Below, in pieces: positions 2,426 through 23,425 of a DNA stretch of 24,000 bases. Source of the stretch: Syntrophomonadaceae bacterium (GTDB taxonomy: Bacteria > Bacillota > Syntrophomonadia > Syntrophomonadales > Syntrophomonadaceae); contig JBMNOV010000002.1 in assembly GCA_050943255.1 (NCBI GenBank), forward strand, positions 38,605 through 62,604, in the 5' to 3' direction. The notes below the pieces were generated by a model. It did not search any database and was not told where the DNA came from. It saw only the letters and a list, made by a program, of their open reading frames with translations. The position numbers and the translations under genes were made by a program. The first letter of the stretch is position 1. Every line of letters begins with the position of its first letter.

Positions 2426-3314
2426 AACCTATAATCTAACGCGCCAATTTGGAGACTTTACCGCAGTTGATTCACTGGATCTGGCCATTAAGCCGGGTGA
2501 AATCTGCGGATTTTTAGGTCCTAATGGTGCGGGCAAATCAACTACCATTCGTATGCTTTGCGGTATCTTAAAGCCCAGTTCCGGAAGCGGCAGTGTACTA
2601 GGTTATGATCTGGTACGCGAGAGTGAACTCATAAAAAGGCGAATAGGTTATATGTCGCAAAAGTTCAGTCTCTACGACGATTTGACTGTATTGGAAAACA
2701 TCGATTTCTATGCCGGATTATATAACATTACCCGTCGGCAGCGGCGGGCCCGGATCCATGAGATACTGGAGCTGACGGGACTTATTAAACACTGTAATGA
2801 ACCGACAGCCAACTTAAGTGTAGGCTTTAAACAGCGTTTGGCTTTAGCCTGTGCCATTATCTCGCCAGCAGATGTCCTTTTTTTGGATGAACCTACTAGC
2901 GGGGTTAGTCCTACGGCTCGGCGGGCTTTCTTCGATATAATCTATACCCTGGCCCAGGCAGGAACCACCGTCATCGTTAGCACTCATTTTATGGATGAAG
3001 CAGAACGTTGTGACCGTATTGCCTTTATGTCCCAGGGGAAATTGCTGGCCCTGGATCGCCCGGATCACTTAAAAAAAATGACCATAAAAGGTGTTATGGT
3101 AGAACTGGAACTACCCTCCCCCATGGAATGGCTACCTCGACTGGAAGCTTCGACCTGGGTAAAAGAAGCCAGCATTCATGGTTCACTCTTGCATGTATTA
3201 CTACCGGATGAAAATGCCATATATGCACTAAAGGAACTTACCGGACAACAGCCGCGCGTGATAACCCCCAGCCTTGAGGACGTCTTTATCAATTTAGCCA
3301 GGAAAGAAGTGTGA
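2409..3314 (+). CDS. ABC transporter ATP-binding protein (second of two)
   Basis: Walker A GPNGAGKST and Walker B LFLDEPTSGVS are present, with a degenerate signature LSVGFKQR. I chose the ATG at 2409 (MEFAIETYNL...) rather than the track start at 2373, because ABC ATPases begin a few residues before this beta-strand. It overlaps the upstream gene by 17 nt. Confidence 0.88.
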   Translation: MEFAIETYNLTRQFGDFTAVDSLDLAIKPGEICGFLGPNGAGKSTTIRMLCGILKPSSGSGSVLGYDLVRESELIKRRIGYMSQKFSLYDDLTVLENIDFYAGLYNITRRQRRARIHEILELTGLIKHCNEPTANLSVGFKQRLALACAIISPADVLFLDEPTSGVSPTARRAFFDIIYTLAQAGTTVIVSTHFMDEAERCDRIAFMSQGKLLALDRPDHLKKMTIKGVMVELELPSPMEWLPRLEASTWVKEASIHGSLLHVLLPDENAIYALKELTGQQPRVITPSLEDVFINLARKEV

Positions 3315-4438
3315 TCGGCATGAGTATACAGCGAATCTTTGCAGTGGTTAAAAAAGAGTTTCTCCAAATGAAGCGTGATCGAATGACCCTGGGATTAATT
3401 TTTATGATACCGCTGATACAGTTAATTCTGTTCGGCTATGCCATTCAAACCGAAGTTAAACATATTCCTACAGTTGTTTTTGATCAATCGCTTTCCACCT
3501 CCAGCCGGGATTTACTGGACTCATTTTCAGCCTCCGGCTACTTTGATATAAAATATACCGTTAATAGTTATACAGAGGTAACGCAAAAAATTGACAGCGG
3601 CCAGGCACAGGTAGGAATCATTTTTCCGCCTGATTTCTATCGTGCTTTGCAGCGGGGTGAGTCAGCACCCGTTCAAGTAATTGTGGATGCCAGTGACAAC
3701 ATGGTGGCCAACCAGGCCGTGGCAGTCGCCAATGCCATCGGGCTGATTAAATCCCAGCAAATCCTAACGCAAAAAATGGCCTTTTCCGGAGGCCCCCCTT
3801 ATGACATAAGAGTAAGACCTTGGTATAACCCTGACGGGGTTACTGCATATTACATGGTACCGGCTATACTGGGCATGGTGGTAACCATGACCATGGTTAT
3901 TATTACTGCAGTTGCCATCGTGCGGGAGCGGGAGAGAGGTACCATGGAGCAGCTTCTTGTTACCCCCATTAAACCGCTGGAATTGATGATTGGTAAAATT
4001 CTCCCCTACATTGTTCTTGGCTATATACAAATAACAGTAGCTTTGCTGGTAGGAGTTTTAATCTTTAATGTACCTATCCGGGGCAGCTTACTGCAGCTCT
4101 ACTTATTAACCCTGTTTTTTATTACCGCATCACTGGGGTTAGGTTTAATGATCTCCAACGTAGCCAAAAACCAGATGCAGGCTTTTCAAATGTCATTTTT
4201 TATAATGCTGCCCAGCATCTTGTTGTCTGGTTTCATGTTTCCCCGTTTAGCCATGCCTCAGGTTATATATTATTTAAGCTATGTAATCCCTTTGACCTAT
4301 TATCTGGATATCATCCGGGGTATTATGCTAAAAGGAATAGGCTATCAGTATTTGATGGGACAGGTTATTTCGTTATTTGTCTTTTCCATTGTCATGCTGA
4401 CAATTAGTACCCTTAAGTTCCAAAAGAAGATAATTTAA
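3311..4438 (+). CDS. ABC-2 type transporter permease (YbhR/YbhS/YhhJ-like)
   Basis: One N-terminal TM helix, a large extracytoplasmic loop, then about five C-terminal TM helices, which is the typical ABC-2 layout. The GTG at 3311 overlaps the upstream stop (GTGA). The ATG at 3320 is an alternative start. Confidence 0.85.
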   Translation: MIGMSIQRIFAVVKKEFLQMKRDRMTLGLIFMIPLIQLILFGYAIQTEVKHIPTVVFDQSLSTSSRDLLDSFSASGYFDIKYTVNSYTEVTQKIDSGQAQVGIIFPPDFYRALQRGESAPVQVIVDASDNMVANQAVAVANAIGLIKSQQILTQKMAFSGGPPYDIRVRPWYNPDGVTAYYMVPAILGMVVTMTMVIITAVAIVRERERGTMEQLLVTPIKPLELMIGKILPYIVLGYIQITVALLVGVLIFNVPIRGSLLQLYLLTLFFITASLGLGLMISNVAKNQMQAFQMSFFIMLPSILLSGFMFPRLAMPQVIYYLSYVIPLTYYLDIIRGIMLKGIGYQYLMGQVISLFVFSIVMLTISTLKFQKKII

Positions 4439-8598: not shown

Positions 8599-9462
8599 AT
8601 GTTAAATAAATTAAATCATGTAATTGATTATATTGAAGATCATTTAACCGATGAGCTATCACCTAAAATAATTTCTGAGTATGCTGGAGTTTCTGATTAT
8701 CACTTTAGAAAGATATTTTTTTATCTTTCAGGATTGACGCTTAGCGAATACATCAAAAATAGAAAATTGTCGGAAGCCAATAAGGATTTACTTAATGGAG
8801 AAAAAGTAACGGATGTCGCTTTTAAATATGGTTATCAGTCAATAGACGGCTTTACTCGAGCATTTAAAAAATGGAATGGGTCTTTACCCTCAGATGTATT
8901 TAAAAAAGGCATAAGTAAATCGTTTCCCAAACTTTCTTTCGTGATAACCGTCAAGGGAGGAATTACTATGGAATTTCGAATTGAAGACAAACCAGCGTTT
9001 AGCTTAGTTGGTGTAAGTAAACGTGTTCCTATGCAATTTGCAGGTGTTAATAACGAGATACTAAAGTTGGCAGAAAGCATAACGGACAAACAAAAAGAAG
9101 AGATGCATTCTCTGCAAAATATAGCGCCTTATGAAATTGTCAATGCATCTTATGATGCTGACGCTAATTTCTTAAAAGAAGAAGGATATTTAACTCACTT
9201 GATAGGGGTTTTAACGACTGAAAAACAAGTTAGTGATCTATTAGAAAAAGTGCCAGTAGAAGCCTGTACTTGGGCCATATTCCCCAACGAAGGCCCATTT
9301 CCTTCTACATTACAACAAACAATGGCAAAAATATATTCAGAGTGGCTTCCTTCTTCCAATTACGAAGTAATCAATGCCCCTTCTTTTTCATTTACTAAAA
9401 TGGATGCAAATAAAAAAGATTACGCTTATAGTGAAATTTGGATTCCTGTTCAGAAGAAGTAA
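8599..9462 (+). CDS. AraC-family transcriptional regulator with a GyrI-like effector-binding domain
   Basis: The N-terminal double HTH includes YAGVSDYHFRKIFFYLSGLTLSEYIKNRKL and VTDVAFKYGYQSIDGFTRAFKKWNG. The C-terminal half (MEFRIEDKPAFSLVGVS...EIWIPV) follows the GyrI/SbmC-like pattern. AAAGGAG lies upstream. Confidence 0.85.
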   Translation: MLNKLNHVIDYIEDHLTDELSPKIISEYAGVSDYHFRKIFFYLSGLTLSEYIKNRKLSEANKDLLNGEKVTDVAFKYGYQSIDGFTRAFKKWNGSLPSDVFKKGISKSFPKLSFVITVKGGITMEFRIEDKPAFSLVGVSKRVPMQFAGVNNEILKLAESITDKQKEEMHSLQNIAPYEIVNASYDADANFLKEEGYLTHLIGVLTTEKQVSDLLEKVPVEACTWAIFPNEGPFPSTLQQTMAKIYSEWLPSSNYEVINAPSFSFTKMDANKKDYAYSEIWIPVQKK

Positions 9463-9672
9463 AACTAACAATCTGTTAAACTTGCACAGGCTTCATTTAT
9501 AATTTACTATCAGCTTGAATGCTTAGACAGAAAGATATTTCTCAGGGCGTCGGCCAGAATTACCTTCTCTTTGTCGTTTAGGTTCTTAGGATCGACACCC
9601 GGTTTTCTTTACAATAAATTTCACTCGCTTATTACATTTGTTGGCCAATAACAATAATGAAAGAACTGTCCC

Positions 9673-11634
9673 TTAGCTTAAAATAGGGTAATACTTTCTA
9701 AAGAACGTGGAAATATTACCCAGAAAGTAGTTCCCTGGGGACCAGTATCCACTTTTATTTTCGCTTGATGCCTGGCAGCAATACGGTAACATACTGCCAA
9801 ACCCAAACCTGTTTCCATTTTCTTTAGTAGTTAAGAAGGGAGTACCCAGATTTTTGAGCATTAGTTGATCAAGTCCTGGACCTTCATCCCGGATAAACAA
9901 GAGGGCATTATCATTCTCGGAACGGATACCAATAGTGAGAGTTCCACCAGTTGACATTGCTTCAATACCGTTACGGGTTAAATTAAGAATGAGCTGGCGA
10001 ATCTCTTTTTCATCAATAAATACCAGGGGAGCGTCATCTAGATCTAGTTTGACCTGTATATCTGAATACCGGGCATCTGCCAGTATCATAGGTTGCAGGG
10101 ATTCTATGATTTCATGCAGGTGGCAGGATCTTAAGTCTAAGGGTTTATCCTTGGCCATACCCAGGTAGTCAGAAATAATGGTGTTGGCACGGTCAAGTTC
10201 CTCAATCATCAAGTCATAATAATCTTGGTTTGAACTATCTTCTTTGCTCTTAAGCATTTGCAGGAAACCTCTTATCGAAGTCATAGGGTTCCTGATCTCA
10301 TGACCAATTGAGGCAGCCATTTCTCCAACCAAGTTTAGGCGGTCAAGTCGAGATAGTTCGCGTTCAAAATGCTCAGACTCTTTACGCTGGGTGATATCTT
10401 CCATAGTTCCTTCATAATAGAGAATTTCGCCTTTATCATCAAGTACTACCCTGATATTTTCCGAAACCCAGATAACCGTACCATCTCGGCGGCTTACCTG
10501 ATGCTCAAATTCATTCCTTTGCGTTTTGCCATTTAATATACTTTTATAATCAATACTGGATTTTAGGTTAAGTAATTCTTCAGGTTTATTATACCCCAGG
10601 ATATGTGCCATTGCTGGGTTAACTATCAGATAGTGACCGTCACAGGCTACCCGAAAAATCCCTTCGGTCGCATTTTCGAAAATGGAGCGATATTGCTGTT
10701 CGGCCTTCTGTAGTTCTGCAAATAACCTGGCGTTGTCCAGTGCACTAGCTGCAGCAATCGCCAGGATCTCCAGGGTCTTGATCTTTTCTGGAGGAAAAGC
10801 AGAAAGTTTCGTTGAACCAACATTCAATACCCCCACACACTTACCCCCATTTAGAAGTGGAATATTAATTACTGATTCAATCTCAGGAATGGGTAGTAAG
10901 GGTGAATATTGGGTATTTTTTTCAGCTCCCTCGACCAATCCCTGGGGGGCGGGAACCAGTTGCCCTACAATACTTTCCGAATATCGACCCCGGGCAATGG
11001 CTACATATAGTTCATTATTGGCATCAGCTGGCAGCAAAATTAATACCTCATTTGCCCCACTTTGATCAATAACTGTATCAACAAGCTTATTAAGAATAAT
11101 GTTAATGTCAAGGGTACGGGAAATAGTCATAGCAAGGTCATAAATCGCCATGCTCTCGCGCAGCTGTAGGTTCTCATTTTTTAGATGGTTTATTTCTAGA
11201 GCACGAGATAATACTGGCAAGAGAATGTCCATTTTAAATGGTTTTAACACGTAGTCAAACGCCCCTAATTTCATCGTTTCTACCGCTGAATGAACTGTAG
11301 CATATCCGGTCATAATGATGCTAATCATATGGGGGCTTATTATGCGAGATTTTTTTAGGAATTCTATTCCATCCATTTCGGGCATCATTAAATCAAGCAA
11401 AAGAATATCAAAGTCCTGTTCTTGTAAGGCTTTTAATGCTTTGATAGCAGATGAAAAGCCAGAGGCTTCATACCCCCTATTTCTCAGGGCTTCACACAAT
11501 GCGTCCACTAGTTGAATTTCATCGTCAACAATCAGAACTGTAATTAAATCTGTAGTATTCAGTGTACTCAACCTCCGGAAATGTAAATTAAATATTCTAT
11601 TGTAACGACCAAAAAAATAACTGTAGGGAAACAT
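9673..11634 (-). CDS. Hybrid REC-GAF-PAS-HisKA-HATPase histidine kinase with a frameshifted 3' end (possible pseudogene or sequence error)
   Basis: REC domain: VLIVDDE...ILLLDLMMPEMDG...MTGY...LKPF. A GAF-like segment and a PAS domain (QYRSIFENATEGIF...GTMEDITQRK) follow. The H-box is ASIGHEIRNPMTSIRGFLQML, the N-box LNLTRNGIEAM and G1 DEGPGL. After TTKENG the frame reads nonsense, while the adjacent frame reads a canonical G2 box and C-terminus (see finding). AAGGGAG lies 5 nt upstream of the ATG at 11634. Confidence 0.8.
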   Translation of the reverse strand: MFPYSYFFGRYNRIFNLHFRRLSTLNTTDLITVLIVDDEIQLVDALCEALRNRGYEASGFSSAIKALKALQEQDFDILLLDLMMPEMDGIEFLKKSRIISPHMISIIMTGYATVHSAVETMKLGAFDYVLKPFKMDILLPVLSRALEINHLKNENLQLRESMAIYDLAMTISRTLDINIILNKLVDTVIDQSGANEVLILLPADANNELYVAIARGRYSESIVGQLVPAPQGLVEGAEKNTQYSPLLPIPEIESVINIPLLNGGKCVGVLNVGSTKLSAFPPEKIKTLEILAIAAASALDNARLFAELQKAEQQYRSIFENATEGIFRVACDGHYLIVNPAMAHILGYNKPEELLNLKSSIDYKSILNGKTQRNEFEHQVSRRDGTVIWVSENIRVVLDDKGEILYYEGTMEDITQRKESEHFERELSRLDRLNLVGEMAASIGHEIRNPMTSIRGFLQMLKSKEDSSNQDYYDLMIEELDRANTIISDYLGMAKDKPLDLRSCHLHEIIESLQPMILADARYSDIQVKLDLDDAPLVFIDEKEIRQLILNLTRNGIEAMSTGGTLTIGIRSENDNALLFIRDEGPGLDQLMLKNLGTPFLTTKENGNRFGFGSMLPYCCQASSENKSGYWSPGNYFLGNISTFFRKYYPILS

Positions 11635-11698
11635 CTACGCTCCCTTGGAAATGTGATTTAAAGTTTTCAGTGCCTTTCAGAAAATCTATGTCTATTCC

Positions 11699-12508
11699 TT
11701 AATTGTCAATATAAGGAATTTTTATCGAAACGGTTGTACCTTGATCAACATTGCTGGTAATATTCATTACACCATGATGATCGGTTACAATGCGACTGCA
11801 AATGGGCAAGCCCAACCCTGTTCCTTTACCATCTGGCTTGGTAGAATAAAACGGCTCAGTCACCTTGGACAAAATTTGAGGTTTAATACCTATACCGGTA
11901 TCTTTAATATGAATAGCCACCCAGTCAGTTTGAGCATGTTCTACATTAACCTGAATGGTTAGAGTACCACCTTCAGGCATAGCATCAATGGCATTGGTAA
12001 AAAGGTTGATAAAGAGCTGTCGAAGCTCCTGATGATCACCGTAAATCATTGGTATGGACGACTGGAAATCACATATTACCCTGATCCGGTTACTTCGAAA
12101 GTGATAGCTGATAAGCTCCACAGCGTCTTCTATCTCCTGGCAGACATTTACTGTAGATACCTGCCGCTGTTTACGGCGGCTGAAATCAAGTAATTCTGAG
12201 ATTAGGGTAGCCATACGATCAATTTCACTGGATATTATTTTTAATGTTCTTTGTTTGGGGTCATCGGGGGAAATCTGAGCAACCAGCGATTCAACCCGCA
12301 GGCTCAAAGTGGTTAGGGGGTTATTAAGTTCATGAGCAATACTAGCTGCTAGCTCTCCCATTGTCGCCAGCCGAGCCGCTTGTAACAGTTGTTGATTTAT
12401 GGCCTGGACTTCCTCATTCTTTTTCTCCACCTCCATGGTCAAAGCGAGAAGGCCGCGATTAGTTTCATTTAGTTCTTCCTGCAGCATTCGGTTTTGCTCA
12501 AGTACCAA
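11699..12508 (-). CDS. Cytoplasmic sensor-less histidine kinase (coiled coil + HisKA + HATPase_c)
   Basis: H-box ELAASIAHELNNPLTT, N-box INLFTNAIDAM, G1 DTGIGI, G2 GTGLGLPICSRIV. There is no TM segment and no sensor domain, only a heptad-rich leader. The start is uncertain: TTG at 12508 has no good SD, and the frame stays open up to 12562. Confidence 0.8.
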   Translation of the reverse strand: MVLEQNRMLQEELNETNRGLLALTMEVEKKNEEVQAINQQLLQAARLATMGELAASIAHELNNPLTTLSLRVESLVAQISPDDPKQRTLKIISSEIDRMATLISELLDFSRRKQRQVSTVNVCQEIEDAVELISYHFRSNRIRVICDFQSSIPMIYGDHQELRQLFINLFTNAIDAMPEGGTLTIQVNVEHAQTDWVAIHIKDTGIGIKPQILSKVTEPFYSTKPDGKGTGLGLPICSRIVTDHHGVMNITSNVDQGTTVSIKIPYIDN

Positions 12509-12562
12509 ATCCAGCTTTTCTTTTAACTCTTTAATAATGCTCTTTTTATCGAATATGACTGC

Positions 12563-13597
12563 TCACCCCGCTTGCATTTTGCTATTTCTAGCCACAATGA
12601 CTGAAGCATCATCATCATCTCGGGCAAGTTTCCGCAGCAGGTACTGAGCAGTATAATTAGCTGATGCTTTAGCCAGTTGGGGAAAATCTGACCACCTCCA
12701 GGTTGTTGCCAAACCGTCGGTGTGAAGAACCAGTACCATTGATGGTTCCCAACAGTATTCAGCAGCAATAGGATCGGGTGCATTAAATCCAACAATTCCG
12801 CGTTGTACTGGGAAACTTATCGGGTTCGGGTAACCAAAAACCCGAGCTGAGATATTACCAACGCGGACAAAGGTTAATCTTACACCACCTTTACCCCAAT
12901 TAAACCGGGCTAGGGCCATTACCACCCCCCGGGTGCTCCGGCAAGCCTTTCCCGCCCCATGAAAAATCATGGGCAGGGGCTGATCATAATGGGCTTCAAT
13001 ATATTCTTGGGCAATTCTAGCAGCCTGGTGTGCATATTTCCCATGTCCTAAACCATCGATTAGCGCTAACAAAGCAGAGTTATTCCATTGCCTGATGATA
13101 AAACTGTCACCGTTAAATACCATACCTGGTCGTGCCCGGGAGGCTGAACCAAAAGAAAGCGGACAGCTTACTACTTCCGGGGAGTGTTCACGCCATTTTA
13201 GGCAAGTTACCAATGTGCCGGTTTGACCCTCAGTCCTGGATTCGATATAAAATTCGTCCATCAGCCGTTTTATAGTACCCAGACCGTAGCCAAGGGTACC
13301 TGAGGTTGAAAAACCATCAATTAACGCTTTCTCCACTTCTGCAATTCCTGGCCCATTGTCCTGGGAATCTATTTTTATTCCTAATTTGGTACCATTATTA
13401 AATCCAGTAAAAATCAATTGCCCGCCTCCGGCATGTCTGACCAGGTTAGAAGATAGCTCGCTTACGACAATGGCTAGATCTTCACTCTCTTTCAGGCTGA
13501 AACCTAAATCGACGGCCATAGACCTAACCAGACGTCTGGCCTCATAGGCATCACTAGAATGAGAGACCTGCAATACATACTTTGCGGGAAGGAGCAT
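12563..13597 (-). CDS. Fusion of an RsbT/RsbW-like GHKL serine-kinase domain and a PP2C (SpoIIE/RsbX-like) phosphatase domain
   Basis: N-terminal half: VSELSSNLVRHA (N-box), DNGPGI (G1), GYGLGTIKRLMDEFYIES (G2). This is clearly paralogous to the upstream RsbT-like protein. C-terminal half: GDSF, IDGLGHG, LHTDGL and DDDDASVIVAR match PPM/PP2C metal-binding motifs. The SD AGAGGTGA lies inside the 3' end of the upstream gene. Confidence 0.85.
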   Translation of the reverse strand: MLLPAKYVLQVSHSSDAYEARRLVRSMAVDLGFSLKESEDLAIVVSELSSNLVRHAGGGQLIFTGFNNGTKLGIKIDSQDNGPGIAEVEKALIDGFSTSGTLGYGLGTIKRLMDEFYIESRTEGQTGTLVTCLKWREHSPEVVSCPLSFGSASRARPGMVFNGDSFIIRQWNNSALLALIDGLGHGKYAHQAARIAQEYIEAHYDQPLPMIFHGAGKACRSTRGVVMALARFNWGKGGVRLTFVRVGNISARVFGYPNPISFPVQRGIVGFNAPDPIAAEYCWEPSMVLVLHTDGLATTWRWSDFPQLAKASANYTAQYLLRKLARDDDDASVIVARNSKMQAG

Positions 13598-13604
13598 TTT
13601 TATA

Positions 13605-14009
13605 TCACCTCTGCCATTTAGTAATTATTACAATAGTGCCTTCTCCAACTCGAGATTCTATTTTCATTTCATCCATTAATCTTTGCGCACCGGGAAGACC
13701 CAGACCAAGACCCTGGCTGGTAGAAAAGCCTTCTTGCATAACCTGTTTCAGGTTGGTAATACCAGGACCATGATCTTCAAAGGTCAACTCAATTCCCTTG
13801 GCAGCATTTCTTTCAAGGATACGCCAACGCATCAGCCCTAAGCCAGCATATAGATAAATATTGCGTGCCAGCTCTGAAGCTGCAGTGACAATACGCGTAA
13901 TATTGGTAAGGCTGAAATTTAATTTTTCACATTCCTCACGGACAGTCTTCCTTACCAGAATAATATCGCTCTCGTGCCTGATAGCTACTTCCCCATTAAT
14001 ATCAGCCAT
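13605..14009 (-). CDS. rsbT: RsbT-like anti-sigma-regulatory-factor-type serine kinase
   Basis: A 134-aa single-domain GHKL kinase with TAASELARNI (N-box), DHGPGI (G1) and GLGLGLPGAQRLMDEM (G2). It lies 3 nt after the RsbS-like gene. Confidence 0.85.
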   Translation of the reverse strand: MADINGEVAIRHESDIILVRKTVREECEKLNFSLTNITRIVTAASELARNIYLYAGLGLMRWRILERNAAKGIELTFEDHGPGITNLKQVMQEGFSTSQGLGLGLPGAQRLMDEMKIESRVGEGTIVIITKWQR

Positions 14010-14012
14010 TAT

Positions 14013-14384
14013 TTATCTCTCCCGTGGGCTCGTAACACCTATAATTTCCAAGGCTTGATCGACATTAAGAGCAGTTCTGACTCCTCCCAGATTCAATCCT
14101 AGCTGGGTGGCAGTTATAGCAACACTAGGTTGCATTCCAGCTATAACCGTCTCGCCGCCCATCAAAACCACCATCTGAGCTGTTTCAGCTATAACCCGGG
14201 CAAAAAAGGAGTCCAATGTCTGACAAGCAGATATATCCAATATTAGACCTTTAACCTGGTACCTCTCCATCAAGTTTAATATCTTTTCCTGAAGAATATT
14301 AATAGAAGTATCATCGGTATCAGATGGCATCGTCACCAATAACACGTCCAATATTCTTATTACCGAAATATTTTCTACACTCAT
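14013..14384 (-). CDS. rsbS: RsbS-like single STAS-domain protein
   Basis: A 123-aa protein. The motif LILDISACQTLDSFFARV aligns with the B. subtilis RsbS segment around phospho-Ser59 (DSF). The family pattern GMQPSVAITATQLGL is present. The SD GGAGAGG lies upstream. Confidence 0.85.
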   Translation of the reverse strand: MSVENISVIRILDVLLVTMPSDTDDTSINILQEKILNLMERYQVKGLILDISACQTLDSFFARVIAETAQMVVLMGGETVIAGMQPSVAITATQLGLNLGGVRTALNVDQALEIIGVTSPRER

Positions 14385-14412
14385 TATTAAACCTCTCCAT
14401 TTAACCTTGGTA

Positions 14413-16296
14413 TTAAGGTTGTTTTACCACCTGTAGCTTCAATAGGGTTAAAGCAAAAAATAATCCTGTGGCGAAAGAGGAGCGGGTATTCACATTAGAT
14501 AAATCAATGCCTAATTGGACAAGAGTACGGGCAATTTCTGGGCGAATACCAGTCAAAACCACCTCAGCCCCCAATAGATTAACTGCTTTAATGGTCTCAA
14601 TTAGATACCGGGCAGTTTGAGAATCAATGGTAGGCACTCCTGTAACATCAATTAAAGCAACCGCAGATCCCGTCTCTACTATTTTTTGCAGCAACTGCTC
14701 CATCAACTGCTCGGTACGAATACTATCCAGGGTGCCAATTACGGGTACAGCTACAATTCCTTCCCAAATCTGGATCGCCGGGGTGGAAACTTCCAGAATT
14801 TCTTGAGCCTGACGGGAAATGATCTCCTCAGCCCGTTTACGTTCTTCGATTTCTGCACGCAATATCTCATTAAGCCTTTCCAGCTCAGCCGTCCGCTCTC
14901 TGACCCGAAATTCCAATTCTTCATGGGATTTGCGTAGCGCCTCTTCCGCCTTTTTACGTTCGGTGATATCCTGCCCCTGAGCAATGGTTGCGATAACGGT
15001 AGAGCCATCCTCCGCAAAAATGGTAGCTGAATTCCATAATACCGTCCGCACTGAACCATCGATATGGGCAATGAGAATCTCTACAACCTCCCAACGCTCT
15101 CCAGAAGCTGTGCGGCGAATAAGGGCCATTGATTCTTCTTTTTGGGAATCAGGGAAAAGGATTTCCAGGGAACTACCCAGAACTTGGTCAGCGCTTAGCC
15201 CGGTTAAGCGTTCAAATGCCCGGTTAAACTGCACAATTCTATACTCCGGATCCCATACAATGATGGGTGCGTTAGCATAGTTAAGCAGGTTTTTCAGGTA
15301 AGCATTGGATTTACGGAAAGCTTCCTCGGCCTGCTTCCGTTGAGCTAGTTCCACATTTAGTTCAGCAGTTCTTTCATTAACCCTCGCTTCTAAAATATCA
15401 TATGCTTTTTGAAGTTCGGCTTCTGTCTCCTTGCGTTTGGTGATGTCAATTCCCATCTCCATAATTAGAGTAGAACCATCACTATCAATAAAAGGGATAT
15501 CATAAATTTGATAAGTGCGGCCATCTGGACCGATCCATTCCCAATCATGCCGCTTCATTTTTTCTAAACATTGAAAGGATTCGCAATTCGTGCATGGTTC
15601 GCTCAATCCAAATAGAAATTCAAAACAGCGCCTGCCCTGAGATTCGCCAAAACGCTCCCTAAAAAAGCGGTTAGCAAAAGGTACATGATAATCTTGGGTT
15701 ATCAGTATCAGGTATGCAGGTAGGTGCTCTAAAACATCATTAAATTGCTGCTGTTCTTTTATTAATTTCTGTTCTGTTCGTTTACGCTCGTTTATTTCTC
15801 TCTGTAGTTCCCGGTTAACTTGTTCCAGTTCTGCAGTACGACTTCTAACCATTAACTCCAATTCTTTATTAGATTTTTGTAATGCTTCCTCAGCTTTCTT
15901 CCTGTTGGTAATATCAATAATAACTAAAATGGATTCTCGGGTTTCTGGTATAGGTGCGGTGGAAACATAGGTATGGATAACGGTGCCATTTTTATGTTGA
16001 AAGCGTACATCACAACAATAATGGGATGTCTTATCAGGGTTACTTCTACTCCTTTGATAGTAATCATAGATATTATTTCTTTCTTCTAACAAGCAGAGTT
16101 CAGTCCATTTTTGTTTAGACTCTATTTCCTCTTTGGAATAACCCAGGAGAGTCACAAAATTATCGTTCACCTGCTTAATTGTAGCATCTTCCTGAGCTAT
16201 TACTATGCTGCAACCAGATATATCGAAAATGGTCTGATATGCCTTTAACTTGTAAAGAGCATCTGGGATCTCCTTTTGGTCAATACCTGAATACAT
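14413..16296 (-). CDS. rsbR: RsbR-like stressosome sensor: three PAS domains plus a C-terminal STAS domain
   Basis: The C-terminal ~120 aa (VPVIGTLDSIRTEQL...LIDVTGVPTIDSQTARYL...LTGIRPEIARTLVQLGIDL) match the RsbR STAS pattern, including the Thr of GIRPEIA-x-T. The N-terminus has three PAS-like units. They are joined by repeated linkers of the form IT-x-RK-x-AEEAL...RTAELE. The SD GAGGTGA lies upstream of the ATG at 16296. Confidence 0.85.
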   Translation of the reverse strand: MYSGIDQKEIPDALYKLKAYQTIFDISGCSIVIAQEDATIKQVNDNFVTLLGYSKEEIESKQKWTELCLLEERNNIYDYYQRSRSNPDKTSHYCCDVRFQHKNGTVIHTYVSTAPIPETRESILVIIDITNRKKAEEALQKSNKELELMVRSRTAELEQVNRELQREINERKRTEQKLIKEQQQFNDVLEHLPAYLILITQDYHVPFANRFFRERFGESQGRRCFEFLFGLSEPCTNCESFQCLEKMKRHDWEWIGPDGRTYQIYDIPFIDSDGSTLIMEMGIDITKRKETEAELQKAYDILEARVNERTAELNVELAQRKQAEEAFRKSNAYLKNLLNYANAPIIVWDPEYRIVQFNRAFERLTGLSADQVLGSSLEILFPDSQKEESMALIRRTASGERWEVVEILIAHIDGSVRTVLWNSATIFAEDGSTVIATIAQGQDITERKKAEEALRKSHEELEFRVRERTAELERLNEILRAEIEERKRAEEIISRQAQEILEVSTPAIQIWEGIVAVPVIGTLDSIRTEQLMEQLLQKIVETGSAVALIDVTGVPTIDSQTARYLIETIKAVNLLGAEVVLTGIRPEIARTLVQLGIDLSNVNTRSSFATGLFFALTLLKLQVVKQP

Positions 16297-16677
16297 GTAA
16301 TCACCTCAATTATTTATTTAGCTAAAACAACTACAAGTAGGCTTGGACTGATAGCTTTAATTGTTATAGCTTTTCCGCTCAGGTCAAGGGAATCTCCAAC
16401 AAACAAAACCCCGGATGGTAAATATCAGATTGTAATAGGGTTTTGGTTGAAGAATAATCATAATAAATATTCCCTAAAAAATACATATATCCTTTATTTC
16501 TAGATAATAAAAGAAATTTATACTAAAATAGCAAAATATTAAAATATGATAATGATTTGATCCTGGCTCTTTTAGAATAAAATATTTATCAAAGTGAAAT
16601 AAAACTTAAAATGAAATAGTATATACTGTAAGACACACAACATAGAAACATATATTTGCCCAGGAGGTTTTTACATA

Positions 16678-17937
16678 ATGAAAAAAATAATAACAGCCTT
16701 ATTTTTGGCAGTAATTCTTTTTGCCTGCCCAACCCTAAGTGCCGGCGCTCAGGCCCAGGATACTGTTTCCGTATTAGTGGACGGTTTACCGGTAAACCTT
16801 GATGTTTTACCGGTTATTCAAGATGGACGGACTCTAGTTCCTTTCCGGGCTATAGCCGAAGCTATGAACATAGCCGTTAACTGGGATAATCAAACCCGTA
16901 CCATAAATGCAACAAATGGTAATACCATGGTAAAGTTACAGCTTGGCAGCTATACTGCTTATCGCGATAATACCCCTATTAGACTGGATGTTATGCCGCA
17001 AATAGTGGCTGAGCGTACTTTGATTCCATTGCGCTTTTTCGGAGAAGCCTTTAATTGTCAGGTGGGCTGGGATAGCAATACATATCAGGTAAGCGTGATT
17101 TCTCCTCCTAAAGCCATGACAGTTATAGGGTTCTATGCTCTGGGTGACAGCCAAACCAGCAGTTGGACTAATCTTTTCGGGAAAGCTTATCCCGAGACTG
17201 CGTCAGGTAATACAGATGTAATATCGGAACTGGCTTTAGGCTGGTATAGTATTGACAAACAGGGCAATTTACTAGATAAAAGCCGTACCGGGTGGCAGCG
17301 CCCTGATGGCTGGGAAAAGGTATTAGAAAGTGCCGCAAAGTATAAGATGGCAAGTGAAATGGTAATACATGTTACTGACGGCGATAAAACTATTACTTCT
17401 TTTTTAAATGACCCATCAGCCATGGCCCGAGCAGCAAAAGCCATTAGTGCCGAAGCCCGGCAATACAGCGGGGTTAATCTTGATTTCGAGGGTTTAGGTT
17501 ATAATGACAGTGGAGAGCAGCTCAAAGAGATACAGCAAAAATTTACTTATTTTATAAGCCTGCTTGCCCGGGAATTAAAAGCTAATAATAGCAGGCTTAC
17601 GCTCACTTTGCATGCTCCGAACAGTGCTTATCCTGGCTACGATTACCAGGCTTTGGGCCAAATTGCGGATCGTATTATTATCATGGCCTATGATTACGGT
17701 ATTAAGCCTGAGCCAGTCATTCAGGTTAAACAGGCGGTAGAAATGGCGACTGATCTGGTTCCTGCCCATAAATTAATCTTAGGCATTTCCGCCCCCAGTG
17801 AAACAACATCAAGTATTGCCACCAAAGTGGGAATTGCCAAACGTTATGATTTAAGTGGTGTAGCTTTATGGAGATTAGGGGTAATAGATGAAGAAATGTG
17901 GCAGATCATAAGAGGTAGTCTTATTGCTAAACGGTAA
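16678..17937 (+). CDS. Secreted glycoside hydrolase family 18 protein with two N-terminal copper-amine-oxidase-N-like repeats
   Basis: Signal peptide MKKIITALFLAVILFACPTLSAGAQA. The repeats contain DGRTLVPFRAIAEAMNIAVNWD and ERTLIPLRFFGEAFNCQVGWD. The GH18 catalytic strand is SGVNLDFEGL (D-x-E), and IIIMAYDY is typical of GH18 barrels. The SD AGGAGG lies upstream. Confidence 0.85.
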   Translation: MKKIITALFLAVILFACPTLSAGAQAQDTVSVLVDGLPVNLDVLPVIQDGRTLVPFRAIAEAMNIAVNWDNQTRTINATNGNTMVKLQLGSYTAYRDNTPIRLDVMPQIVAERTLIPLRFFGEAFNCQVGWDSNTYQVSVISPPKAMTVIGFYALGDSQTSSWTNLFGKAYPETASGNTDVISELALGWYSIDKQGNLLDKSRTGWQRPDGWEKVLESAAKYKMASEMVIHVTDGDKTITSFLNDPSAMARAAKAISAEARQYSGVNLDFEGLGYNDSGEQLKEIQQKFTYFISLLARELKANNSRLTLTLHAPNSAYPGYDYQALGQIADRIIIMAYDYGIKPEPVIQVKQAVEMATDLVPAHKLILGISAPSETTSSIATKVGIAKRYDLSGVALWRLGVIDEEMWQIIRGSLIAKR

Positions 17938-21428: not shown

Positions 21429-21785
21429 TTACGCTTTAGGATTAAATATAACCGCAACAACATAACCAAAAATTATGGCAGCTGCAATTCCAGCTGCAGC
21501 AGCCTCTACACCACCACTAATAGCTCCGAGTAATCCTTTTTGCTCCACTGCTTTAAGGGTTCCCTGAGTTAATAAATGACCAAACCCAGATAGGGGTACA
21601 GTTGCACCGGTTCCCCCTATGTCTACCAGTGGCTGGTATAGCCCTAAACCGCTTAAAAGTGCTCCGCCACTTATGTACCCCACTAGCATATGTCCTGGTG
21701 TTATACTTGGTTTCGTTAAATCCAGTATTAGTTGTCCAATTAGACAAAGTGTTCCTCCAATCAAAAATGCCATTAATAGTGACAA
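21429..21785 (-). CDS. spoVAE: Stage V sporulation protein AE (SpoVAEB-type)
   Basis: A 118-aa polytopic membrane protein. GATVPLSGFGHLL and GGVEAAAAGIAAAI match the SpoVAE pattern. It lies immediately after spoVAD. Confidence 0.9.
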   Translation of the reverse strand: MSLLMAFLIGGTLCLIGQLILDLTKPSITPGHMLVGYISGGALLSGLGLYQPLVDIGGTGATVPLSGFGHLLTQGTLKAVEQKGLLGAISGGVEAAAAGIAAAIIFGYVVAVIFNPKA

Positions 21786-21802
21786 TGCTTAATACCCCCA
21801 AG

Positions 21803-22813
21803 CTAATACTCAATGGCAACAGCGTGTGCTATAGCCGGAATTGTTCTGCCCTGAAAACTGGTAGTAGGGCTCATTAGAGCACCGGTAGCAACTAACAACA
21901 GTTTCTTAATCTCAGCTTTAAACATCTTTTTTAAAAGAGGGCCACAGAGCATGGAAGCGCAACAGCCGCAACCGCTGCCACCAGATCCAATATCTTGAGC
22001 ATCATCATATAGAATAACCCCGCAATCGCTATAAACCGGTTGTGGTACGATACCCTCTTTAATAAAAAGTTGACCTAATATTGCCATCCCAACCTTTCCC
22101 AAATCACCAGTGACCACCAGGTCGTAATAATCAAATGGCCGGTTTAAATCATTAAAGTGCATTTTAATGGTATCGACTGCCGCTGGAGCCATGGCACTAC
22201 CCATATCATTAGTATCAGTCTGCCCCATATCAACTACTCTACCAATAGTAGCACAGGTAATCCGGGGTCCTGATCCCATACCTTCCAGAACTACAGCCCC
22301 AGCAGCAGTAGTAGTCCATTGGGAACTAGGAGGCTTTTGTACCCCCTGTTCAGTAGGGAATCGGTACTGTCTCTCGGCTGTGTAATGATGGCTGCAAGCA
22401 GCAGCAACTACTCGCTCAAAGAAACCACCATCAATCAGCATAGAACCAATTAAAATGGACTCAACCATGGTTGAACAAGCACCATAAAGGCCTAAAAAAG
22501 GAATATTTAACTGGGATGCGGCAAAGTTAGCAGAAACTAGTTGGTTTAATAAATCTCCCGCCAATAATACTTCTGCATCCTGTGTATTGAGGCCGCTTTT
22601 ATTAAGGGCTAGTTCTATTGTTTCCTTAAGCATCTTATTTTCAGCCTTTTCCCAGGTATCCTCACCCATTAGATAGTCGGGCATTATAAGATCAAAATCA
22701 TTACCCCATGGTCCTTGACCTTCTTTAGGACCAACTATGGAAGCCCAGGAGGATAGCACCGGGGGTTTATCAAATGATACTGTTTGTTTACCCTTTTTCT
22801 TTGCTTGCGGCAT
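21803..22813 (-). CDS. spoVAD: Stage V sporulation protein AD
   Basis: A 336-aa protein with a thiolase/ketoacyl-synthase-like fold pattern. Motifs include FDKPPVLSSWASIVGPKEGQGP, GLYGACST and GCGCCA, typical of SpoVAD. It sits between spoVAC and spoVAE. Confidence 0.9.
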   Translation of the reverse strand: MPQAKKKGKQTVSFDKPPVLSSWASIVGPKEGQGPWGNDFDLIMPDYLMGEDTWEKAENKMLKETIELALNKSGLNTQDAEVLLAGDLLNQLVSANFAASQLNIPFLGLYGACSTMVESILIGSMLIDGGFFERVVAAACSHHYTAERQYRFPTEQGVQKPPSSQWTTTAAGAVVLEGMGSGPRITCATIGRVVDMGQTDTNDMGSAMAPAAVDTIKMHFNDLNRPFDYYDLVVTGDLGKVGMAILGQLFIKEGIVPQPVYSDCGVILYDDAQDIGSGGSGCGCCASMLCGPLLKKMFKAEIKKLLLVATGALMSPTTSFQGRTIPAIAHAVAIEY

Positions 22814-22960
22814 TAAGATCCCCCTTACTTATGGAATATAAAACAGTTCTGCAGCCATTACCAGAAAATTAACTCATTATAATATCCGACATCACTAAAA
22901 ACTTATTCGGCTGATCCCTATGTATGGAAAGGCATTTGCTTTACATCTTCTTTTTGTGAA

Positions 22961-23425
22961 TTACATAAAGAATAATTTTACTAAGCCAATAAGGGTAGAA
23001 ACTGCAAAACCAAATACTAGGGTTGGACCAGCAACTGTAAAAATACGGGCTCCTACCCCGAAGACATAGCCTTCTCTTTTAAATTCCATAGCTGATGCTA
23101 CTATCGCGTTGGCAAACCCGGTAATAGGTACTATAGAACCGGCTCCTGCCCTTTTAGCCAGCACATCATAAATACCAATGCCCGTGAAAAAAGCACCCAG
23201 CGCTATCATAATTACAGAAGTAATTGAAGAAGCATCTGTTTTTCCTATACCGCCAGCCATTAACAAATTAAGTATAACCTGGGCAATAACACATATTAAT
23301 CCTCCCACTACAAACGCCCAGAGACAGTGTTTTAGCAAAGGCGGCTTAGGTTTTAACTGCTGTACCATACTATCATATTCATTAACTTCAGCTTGTTTTA
23401 AGTCCTCTGTATTAGGTGTTTGCAA
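22961..23425 (-). CDS. spoVAC: Stage V sporulation protein AC
   Basis: A 154-aa four-TM protein. AGAGSIVPITGFANAI and EGYVFGVGARIFTVAGP are SpoVAC hallmarks. It has a TTG start with GGAGGAG 7 nt upstream. Confidence 0.9.
   Translation of the reverse strand: MQTPNTEDLKQAEVNEYDSMVQQLKPKPPLLKHCLWAFVVGGLICVIAQVILNLLMAGGIGKTDASSITSVIMIALGAFFTGIGIYDVLAKRAGAGSIVPITGFANAIVASAMEFKREGYVFGVGARIFTVAGPTLVFGFAVSTLIGLVKLFFM

Follow-up and report, generated by a model that had tools for sequence, protein, structure and literature searches.

A sigma-factor-less stressosome-type operon with a probable two-component output and a conserved helix at the start of its histidine kinase

Control of sigma B is the setting in which stressosomes are best understood, and most stressosome gene clusters in nature are without sigma B. 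In the known stressosome, RsbR and RsbS assemble into a pseudo-icosahedral complex of ~1.5-1.8 MDa that sequesters RsbT. How, then, does a stressosome reach its output when that output is not a sigma factor? This question is raised by six genes in a 24,000-nucleotide (nt) stretch of DNA from a Syntrophomonadaceae bacterium (assembly GCA_050943255.1, contig JBMNOV010000002.1, positions 38,605 to 62,604 of the forward strand), the whole of which we refer to as the window. Drawing on gene order, on a conserved helix and on natural gene fusions, we consider it fairly probable that the six genes form a stressosome-type operon with a two-component output, in which released RsbT would dock on an N-terminal helix of the histidine kinase encoded by gene 5 and the signal would be relayed to the REC domain of gene 6. 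The genes are as follows, with lengths in amino acids (aa):

14413-16296, minus strand: gene 1, RsbR-like co-antagonist/sensor, 627 aa, three PAS domains and a STAS domain
14013-14384, minus strand: gene 2, RsbS-like single-STAS scaffold protein, 123 aa
13605-14009, minus strand: gene 3, RsbT-like GHKL serine kinase / switch protein, 134 aa
12563-13597, minus strand: gene 4, RsbT-paralog fused to an RsbX-type PP2C, 344 aa
11699-12508 (from a canonical TTG) or 11699-12556 (from an ATA), minus strand: gene 5, soluble histidine kinase
9673-11634, minus strand: gene 6, REC-GAF-PAS-HisKA-HATPase_c protein, frameshifted

The stressosome module and the spread of its layout

Genes 1 to 4 are an RsbR/RsbS/RsbT/RsbX-type stressosome module, on which sequence and fold matches to solved stressosome proteins agree. 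By homology, the RsbR-like and RsbS-like proteins are the predicted core subunits, gene 3 the predicted switch kinase and the C-terminal half of gene 4 the predicted reset phosphatase. Gene 2, a single STAS domain with a phosphorylatable serine as in RsbS proteins, has as its best solved relatives RsbS of B. subtilis (6jhk, E 1e-18), MtS of Moorella (2vy9) and RsbS of Listeria (6qcm), and its Ser59 (TLDSFF) aligns with the phospho-serine Ser59 of B. subtilis RsbS (MIDSFI). Gene 1 has the make-up of an RsbR, namely a variable N-terminal sensor followed by a STAS domain with two phospho-acceptor positions. That STAS domain matches Listeria RsbR at E 1e-27, and Ser559 (TIDSQ) and Thr591 (GIRPEIARTLVQLG) align with both phospho-threonine contexts of the Listeria protein—DS559 stands opposite DT, and RT591 opposite QT in GIRPEIAxT—with the first site being Ser, not Thr.

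Gene 3 matches the Pfam family HATPase_c_2 and has the size and place of an RsbT, a GHKL serine kinase of ~133 aa directly after rsbS: it encodes 134 aa and is separated from gene 2 by a 3-nt spacer. Along its full length it shares 48% identity with what we take to be the sequence of B. subtilis RsbT. Gene 4 divides into two halves:

13178-13597, minus strand: N-terminal half of gene 4 (aa 1-~140), RsbT-paralog kinase-like domain, HATPase_c_2
12587-13159, minus strand: C-terminal half of gene 4 (aa ~147-337), RsbX-type PP2C, matching MtX and RsbX

The N-terminal half is 38% identical to gene 3, and the C-terminal half matches Moorella MtX (3zt9, E 8e-18) and RsbX (3w40, 6e-8) in sequence. An AlphaFold2 (AF2) model of gene 4, with a predicted local distance difference test score (pLDDT) of 84, superposes on MtX 3zt9 with a template modelling (TM) score of 0.90 on the target and a root-mean-square deviation of 2.1 A, and on RsbX with a TM score of 0.79; sequence and fold thus both place this half among the RsbX-type PP2C feedback phosphatases. 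Neither the ATP-binding residues of the kinase half nor the metal-binding Asp residues of the PP2C vary among 16 homologues of ~50% identity. A first-pass annotation, made from the letters of the sequence alone, had proposed that genes 1 to 3 are RsbR/RsbS/RsbT-like, that the two STAS proteins keep their phospho-acceptor contexts, that gene 3 is a 134-aa GHKL serine kinase and that a duplicated RsbT-like domain is fused to the phosphatase. Each of these proposals is borne out by the matches and alignments given here, and profile searches assigned the STAS, HATPase_c_2, HisKA and HATPase_c domains that it had expected.

The window encodes no sigma-factor output. No third STAS domain and no additional RsbT/RsbW-like open reading frame (ORF) occurs in the 24 kb, no sigma factor was found among the scanned window ORFs of >=110 aa, and no RsbU/RsbV/RsbW/sigma-factor set lies beside rsbRST within the window; the earlier statement that RsbV/RsbW/SigB-type genes are missing from it agrees with these scans for STAS, RsbT/RsbW-like and sigma-factor genes.

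We next asked how common the arrangement is. A homologue search with the gene 4 fusion returned 2672 proteins at E<=1e-5, of which the top 120 are all ~314-380 aa long, contain both halves and carry the NCBI name 'ATP-binding SpoIIE family protein phosphatase'. In a scan of one genome per species, fusion loci were present in at least 484 species genomes from many bacterial and archaeal phyla. The best 80 of these at least 484 loci served as our comparative set; they cover more than 15 bacterial phyla plus Halobacteria and one Asgard archaeon (Bacillota, Chloroflexota, Cyanobacteria, Acidobacteriota, Verrucomicrobiota, Pseudomonadota, Halobacteria, Asgard archaea and others), and their six-frame ORFs were annotated with the window's own domains.

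At 59 of the 66 loci with enough flank, the genes immediately upstream of the fusion encode the RsbR-type STAS protein, RsbS and RsbT. A histidine kinase directly follows the fusion at 60 of 70 loci by automatic annotation, and at 64 of 70 with four more loci (L010, L016, L018 and L036) recognised on inspection; in a KSB1 genome (L021, 9402-10865), a GGDEF-EAL protein bearing the helix motif described below takes the place of the kinase. What comes after the kinase is more varied: among 58 eligible loci, the next gene encodes a REC-first protein in 18, a protein with REC ahead of a histidine kinase in 13 and a REC-GAF protein in 8, and seven of the following kinases are hybrids with a C-terminal REC. 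The same six-gene order, with fused phosphatase and motif-bearing kinase, occurs in a metagenomic locus with a globin-coupled RsbR (L090), the REC-GAF protein of which is clearly related to gene 6. One Halieaceae locus (L070, 6533-8999) has no separate RsbT; there the fusion comes straight after RsbS, and no motif-bearing kinase follows.

The link to a kinase is strongly syntenic over more than 15 phyla, and an RsbT-like::PP2C fusion followed by a histidine kinase is the standard architecture of a very large family. As loci of this class go it is ordinary, and it belongs to a widespread but uncharacterised variant of a type of system already known. The first-pass annotation had picked it out as a special combination, a view that does not survive the finding of the same fusion and kinase in a 2672-protein family and at least 484 species genomes. 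The synteny check that it had suggested as a possible refutation came out in its favour: the first kinase after the fusion is kept (64/70), and the sixth gene is kept only in a minority of loci.

A helix conserved at the front of the kinase that follows the fusion

The relevant features of gene 5 are:

12410-12496, minus strand: N-terminal helix motif of gene 5 (QNRMLQEELNETNRGLLALTMEVEKKNEE), found with the motif model, no Pfam family
12170-12361, minus strand: HisKA of gene 5, Pfam, 1.3e-15
11711-12040, minus strand: HATPase_c of gene 5, Pfam, 9e-28, profile positions 1-109 of 111

Gene 5 is a HisKA-family kinase with an H-box and complete N, G1, F and G2 boxes (the G2 box GTGLGL is in place), and its core is AtoS/ZraS-like. 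Pfam assigns no domain to its first ~49 aa; the first-pass annotation had described a kinase with only a coiled coil ahead of its H-box. RsbU_N, the RsbT-binding domain of RsbU, gave no match in genes 5 and 6 at E<=0.01, nor in the gene 5 N-terminus at E<=10.

Near the N-termini of post-fusion kinases, alignment instead revealed a motif of ~30 residues with the consensus I-R-x-L-Q-x-E-L-x-E-T-N-x-G-L-x-A-L-T-x-E-L-E-x-R-V. In gene 5, the gene directly after the fusion, the motif lies within ~20 residues of the N-terminus, and the core consensus LQxELxETNxGLxALxxELE reads QNRMLQEELNETNRGLLALTMEVE; across the family, a Thr-Asn-x-Gly core is nearly invariant. A hidden Markov model (HMM) built from 11 examples and searched over all 6900 ORFs of the 80 loci gave significant matches at 49 of 76 loci, all of them in the gene that immediately follows the fusion and in no other ORF, with the motif starting a median of 54 nt past the fusion stop codon. 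An exhaustive profile search of 1.84 billion representative proteins, seeded with 17 short fragments from a word-indexed search, returned 1459 clusters at E<=1e-3, of which 239 reach E<=1e-10, and in most of the best 150 of the 1459 clusters the match starts at residue 1. Among 80 full-length motif proteins, HisKA occurs in 72, HisKA_3 in 3, PAS in 35, GAF in 11 and REC in 10; within the loci, it is also found in front of an HWE/HisKA_2 kinase and a GGDEF-EAL protein. Standing as it does ahead of HisKA, HisKA_2/HWE, HisKA_3, PAS and GGDEF-EAL, the motif is portable.

No Pfam family covers it. The AF2 model of gene 5 (26 homologues) shows one unbroken helix over residues 4-94, which leads from the motif, at a pLDDT of ~85-90, into the His-bearing DHp helix. 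The literature searched, a body that leaves outside its scope the 2005 survey (Pane-Farre) and the 2012 Moorella paper (Quin), holds no description of the fused phosphatase or the N-terminal helix, and works on PP2C evolution, photoglobin and cyanobacterial PP2C mention neither. We considered whether the helix is a mere generic signalling helix and do not accept this as the whole explanation: the motif model leaves the other kinases of these loci unmatched, and the position of the Thr-Asn-x-Gly core upstream of ExRVxERT-type repeats likewise speaks against it.

Kinases related to gene 5 are also found with other front ends. Two of them (L088, 6001-7374, and L089, 6001-7368) have a core 55-60% identical to gene 5 with an N-terminal REC replacing the helix, and they close chemotaxis-like clusters (CheR-CheW-MCP-CheA-CheB), so that one and the same type of core takes its input from different modules. 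The ~455-aa gene-5-like kinases had been candidates for hybrids with a C-terminal REC; this was discarded, as two proved to be REC-first kinases in chemotaxis-like clusters without stressosome genes.

A pointer to a function for the helix comes from natural fusions. At 13 of the 60 loci with a histidine kinase, the following kinase bears its own N-terminal HATPase_c_2 domain, then a coiled coil and HisKA; 12 of these loci belong to Pyrinomonadaceae-type Acidobacteriota and one to a Bacteroidales genome, and they keep a separate RsbT and the fusion phosphatase. Each kinase-like domain was scored against the window's RsbT and against the N-terminal half of gene 4. Free RsbT proteins score higher with RsbT (79 of 82) and phosphatase-fused domains higher with gene 4 (76 of 77), a pattern that separates the two into ancient classes, and the kinase-fused domains fall into the RsbT class in 14 of 14 cases, one of which belongs to a kinase at another position in L023. 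At 12 of the 13 fused-kinase loci the helix motif is degenerate; the Bacteroidales protein has the domain and the motif side by side. These fusions are Rosetta-stone evidence that an RsbT-type domain would act directly on the helix leading into the kinase.

Gene 6, the gene 5 start and the rest of the operon

Is the proposed relay intact in this lineage? The features of gene 6 are:

11218-11538, minus strand: REC of gene 6, Pfam, AtoC/NtrC/ZraR-like
10735-11106, minus strand: GAF of gene 6, Pfam
10387-10695, minus strand: PAS of gene 6, Pfam
10150-10326, minus strand: HisKA of gene 6, Pfam
9778-10014, minus strand: truncated HATPase_c of gene 6, Pfam profile positions 2-80 of 111
9812-9814, minus strand: +1 frameshift of gene 6, AAA where orthologues imply AA

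Gene 6 retains its H-box, N-box and G1 box, and its G2 box GTGLGL and C-terminal ATPase strands lie in the other frame, in an ORF at 9678-9818: where orthologues have TTKE(K/S)GTGLGLAVCY, gene 6 reads TTKENGNRFGFG, and the expected sequence resumes in another frame. The first-pass annotation's REC-GAF-PAS-kinase endpoint is therefore right as to the REC, GAF, PAS and HisKA domains and fails at the catalytic end, where HATPase_c stops at profile position 80 of 111. With no in-frame G2 box, the autokinase activity of gene 6 is probably gone, its ATPase domain being unlikely to work without that box. Contigs from three samples, one of which has a different gene 1 allele, encode exactly this 653-aa product, so the frameshift is either real in the population or a systematic error and not a one-off assembly slip; we think it probably real.

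Two further observations concern this gene. On a 99.95%-identical contig (L083), a different 1-nt indel at ~3959-3962 breaks the gene 6 REC, which points either to assembly indel errors or to a gene 6 that is gathering lesions. The H-box region (GHEIRNPMTSIRGFLQML) gives a weak match to the KinD model, at 145 bits against a cut-off of 775; it would be pure speculation, built on this match, on the SpoVA operon in the window and on the lack of a neighbouring response regulator, to call gene 6 a sporulation kinase feeding Spo0A.

The start of gene 5 is also unusual. The Met start of more than 20 gene 5 orthologues aligns to an ATA at 12554-12556, which lies 6 nt past the gene 4 stop and is preceded, within 12557-12572, by GGGGTGA, and gene 5 probably starts at this ATA (12556), giving 285 aa as against 269 aa from the TTG at 12508. 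The closest relative (L085; 77-82% protein identity, ~20% diverged) keeps the Shine-Dalgarno sequence, the ATA and the open frame at ~5654, with the first canonical start lying past the motif. This suggests either a low-kinase non-canonical start or a shared start-codon lesion. In the same relative, an IS3-family element (2509-3972, HTH_Tnp_1 and rve ORFs) sits inside rsbS and leaves an 80-aa fragment. The ratio of nonsynonymous to synonymous substitution rates (dN/dS) against the ~80%-identical relative is 0.17-0.23 for all five genes or segments compared, a sign of purifying selection, so any decay would be recent.

Counted from first canonical starts, the six same-direction ORFs are separated by spacers of 28, 3, 7, 54 and 64 nt, and genes 3 and 4 have their Shine-Dalgarno sequences (GGGAGAG and AGAGGTG, respectively) within the coding region of the gene before. 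Both the tight packing and the buried ribosome-binding sites had been read correctly in the first pass; the 54-nt spacer between genes 4 and 5 holds for the canonical start and shrinks to probably 6 nt with the ATA start. A candidate promoter was found by consensus scan:

16360-16387, minus strand: candidate sigma-70-type promoter TTGACC-16-AACAAT, consensus scan only, ~64 nt upstream of gene 1

Evidence for this promoter is weak: promoter and terminator scans of 9300-16800 gave match counts equal to those of shuffled sequence, and the operon boundaries accordingly rest on gene spacing only. An AT-rich intergenic region of 381 nt (16297-16677) parts gene 1 from a divergent gene with Cu_amine_oxidN1 and GH18 domains, and an Rfam scan of the whole window returned zero matches, so that this 381-nt leader is without a known riboswitch. 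Elsewhere in the window are ABC transporters, TetR/GntR/AraC regulators, BcrAD-type activase genes and a SpoVA operon (21429-23425), neighbours that indicate a spore-forming, probably anaerobic member of the Bacillota as host. The closest named relatives of the operon, at ~60% identity, are from Peptococcaceae, Pelotomaculum and Syntrophomonadaceae.

The sensor, gene 1, comprises:

15940-16173, minus strand: PAS1 of gene 1, Pfam/NCBIfam
15427-15732, minus strand: Cys-rich PAS2 of gene 1 (aa 189-290), just below the Pfam cut-off
14953-15297, minus strand: PAS3 of gene 1, Pfam/NCBIfam
14479-14781, minus strand: C-terminal STAS of gene 1, carrying Ser559 and Thr591

Pfam places two PAS domains and the STAS domain over its cut-offs, and the Cys-rich third PAS, aligned along the whole profile, scores 22.8 bits where the cut-off is 23.1, which makes the earlier description of a triple-PAS sensor a reasonable one. 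PAS2 has four cysteines (C224-x10-C235-x2-C238-x4-C243) that are kept in L085 and absent from the RsbR proteins of other loci, and it may be a metal, Fe-S or redox-sensing site. Near-identical strains (L081, 3019-3786; L086) carry a 754-aa allele of gene 1 in which a 381-nt unit of linker and PAS3 is tandemly duplicated. The unit is edged by 30-nt linker repeats, found in the window at 14941-14970 and 15322-15351, 381 nt apart. The PAS copy number of the sensor thus varies within the population.

A proposed route for the signal and its alternatives

How might these parts work together? In the reading that we favour, a signal at the PAS domains would lead RsbT to phosphorylate Ser59 of RsbS and Ser559/Thr591 of RsbR, and RsbT would leave the core once the STAS domains are phosphorylated, both steps being modelled on the Bacillus/Listeria paradigm. 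Free RsbT would then dock on the N-terminal helix of the gene 5 dimer, as the comparative evidence suggests. Docking would switch gene 5 autophosphorylation through the continuous helix into DHp, in parallel to the way in which RsbT activates RsbU by ordering its coiled-coil linker (PMC12143880). Gene 5 would pass its phosphate to the gene 6 REC, a step suggested by family pairing (AtoS/ZraS with AtoC/NtrC) and by adjacency, and gene 6, adding further inputs through its GAF and PAS domains, would in turn signal to a response regulator whose gene lies elsewhere; neither the window nor the surrounding 4-5 kb at close orthologous loci contains one with an output domain. The RsbT-paralog domain of gene 4 would most likely target the phosphatase to the RsbT sites vacated on the STAS core. 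Only tentatively do we extend this to the family at large, where the Thr-Asn-x-Gly helix might be an unrecognised RsbT receiver, the counterpart of RsbU_N, on more than 1,400 clusters of kinases and a few cyclic di-GMP (c-di-GMP) enzymes, with the fused RsbT-paralog serving as decoy or as targeting domain and so tying reset to the release of RsbT.

Compared with the stressosomes of B. subtilis and Listeria, the operon shares RsbS Ser59, the phospho-sites of the RsbR STAS domain, an RsbT-type kinase and an RsbX-type PP2C. It differs in that the window is without RsbU, RsbV, RsbW and SigB, that the phosphatase gene comes directly after rsbT and is fused to a second RsbT-like domain, that the sensor is a triple PAS where theirs is a non-haem globin, and that the output is a histidine kinase. 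Closer in layout is RsbRSTX-VvD1-VvD2 of Vibrio vulnificus, also a sigma-less RSTX set followed by a two-component kinase without RsbU_N (PMC9237108, PMC10014275), although it senses through a haem globin, its RsbX has been described as single-domain, and VvD1 is a large PAS-containing kinase with an output thought to be c-di-GMP turnover. Moorella thermoacetica MtR-MtS-MtT-MtX-MtG has the same R-S-T-X order ahead of a non-sigma effector, and supplies in MtX the best solved match to the phosphatase half of gene 4 and in MtS one of the best matches to gene 2; its MtX, however, has 193 aa without a kinase-like domain, and its effector is a diguanylate cyclase with RsbU_N (PMC12143880). The proposed logic is that of RsbU's N-terminal domain with its linker (Ho & Bradshaw 2025, PMC12143880), in which a dimeric effector is bound by RsbT at a helical element of its N-terminus and the signal passes down a helix, whereas gene 5 has no RsbU_N four-helix bundle and offers a single motif helix of ~30 residues continuous with DHp. 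M. tuberculosis Rv1364c (PP2C-RsbW kinase-STAS, 3ke6), which is among the fold matches, likewise joins a GHKL Ser kinase and a PP2C in one polypeptide, but with the domain order reversed, with an RsbW-type kinase and RsbU-type phosphatase, and in a sigma-F partner switch rather than a stressosome.

RsbRSTX modules with two-component or c-di-GMP outputs have, according to works cited in PMC9237108 and PMC10014275, been catalogued since 2005. In V. vulnificus, deletion of stressosome genes or of the downstream kinase gives similar phenotypes (PMC10014275). The first-pass annotation was thus justified in treating non-sigma outputs as established, the two-component genes of V. vulnificus being genetically linked to the module (PMC9237108, PMC10014275). 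Most proteins downstream of stressosome modules are without RsbU_N, and the control of other outputs by RsbT is an acknowledged gap (PMC9237108), which accords with that annotation's remark that the step from RsbT to a kinase had yet to be settled.

Several points weigh against our proposal. Docking in every member of the variant is extrapolated from comparative evidence, and the conserved helix could serve dimerisation rather than docking. The RsbT::kinase fusions are in essence confined to two clades (Pyrinomonadaceae and a single Bacteroidales genome) and so amount to few independent events, and the phosphotransfer from kinase to REC is read only from family pairing and adjacency. In Vibrio, the one published attempt to detect an interaction of RsbT with VvD1 detected none (PMC9237108), for which Heinz et al. 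offer the explanation that RsbT transiently phosphorylates the downstream kinase on Ser/Thr rather than docking allosterically (PMC9237108). The ATP-binding motifs of RsbT are intact and the invariant Thr of the helix motif could be the acceptor, yet we think this unlikely: covalent RsbT::kinase fusions are better accounted for by a stable contact between domain and helix than by an enzyme acting on its substrate, and the Asn and Gly beside the motif Thr are as conserved as the Thr itself. Activation of RsbU in B. subtilis is also reported (Kang et al. 1998, cited in PMC4976288) to proceed without need for RsbT kinase activity, which would count against it too. A different partner for the helix would be the RsbT-paralog domain of gene 4, the fusion then being reset phosphatase and output switch in one. 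All 80 loci were chosen via the fusion gene, so every motif locus has a fusion by construction of the sample, and co-occurrence of the helix with RsbT is inseparable from co-occurrence with the fusion's RsbT-like domain; moreover, the fusion gene is always the immediate upstream neighbour of the kinase gene, often overlapping it, and its ATP-binding residues are invariant. We nevertheless hold this to be improbable, as all 14 kinase-fused domains are of the RsbT class and not of the fusion class, and the only RsbT-less locus (L070) is also without a motif-bearing kinase.

The frameshift in gene 6 and, in gene 5, an ancestral start position without a canonical start codon are further points against a working relay, which may be impaired here. 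They raise the prospect, to which we assign a modest but real chance, that the operon is decaying in this lineage and its signalling is lost. The gene 6 lesion removes the G2 box and recurs in three samples, an ATA stands where gene 5 orthologues start with ATG, and an IS3-family element splits rsbS in the closest relative. Against decay, dN/dS indicates purifying selection across most of the divergence, genes 1 to 5 are intact, the ATA and Shine-Dalgarno sequence are kept in two ~20% diverged strains with an open frame, which suggests translation, and the three samples with the frameshift may stem from one study. Finally, the RsbRSTX genes might control a sigma factor or other target elsewhere, with the two kinases as mere neighbours; only 24 kb are visible, and a spore-former (to judge by its SpoVA genes) must encode partner switches of the SpoIIAA/AB type elsewhere. 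This we regard as very improbable, given a kinase after the fusion at ~64 of 70 loci over many phyla, archaea included, and a helix motif exclusive to the post-fusion position.

The locus itself is not unique, and part of the operon is probably damaged in this organism. Its layout appears to be the most widespread sigma-less stressosome arrangement, and the comparison yields two handles that are cheap to test: the ~30-residue helix at the start of the output kinase and the natural RsbT::kinase fusions. If RsbT docks on the helix, the coiled-coil switching mechanism of RsbU would extend to histidine kinases, and the soluble gene 5 kinase of 269-285 aa would be a minimal system in which to study it. 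If the helix is the RsbT receiver, this would answer how RsbU-less stressosomes reach two-component systems.

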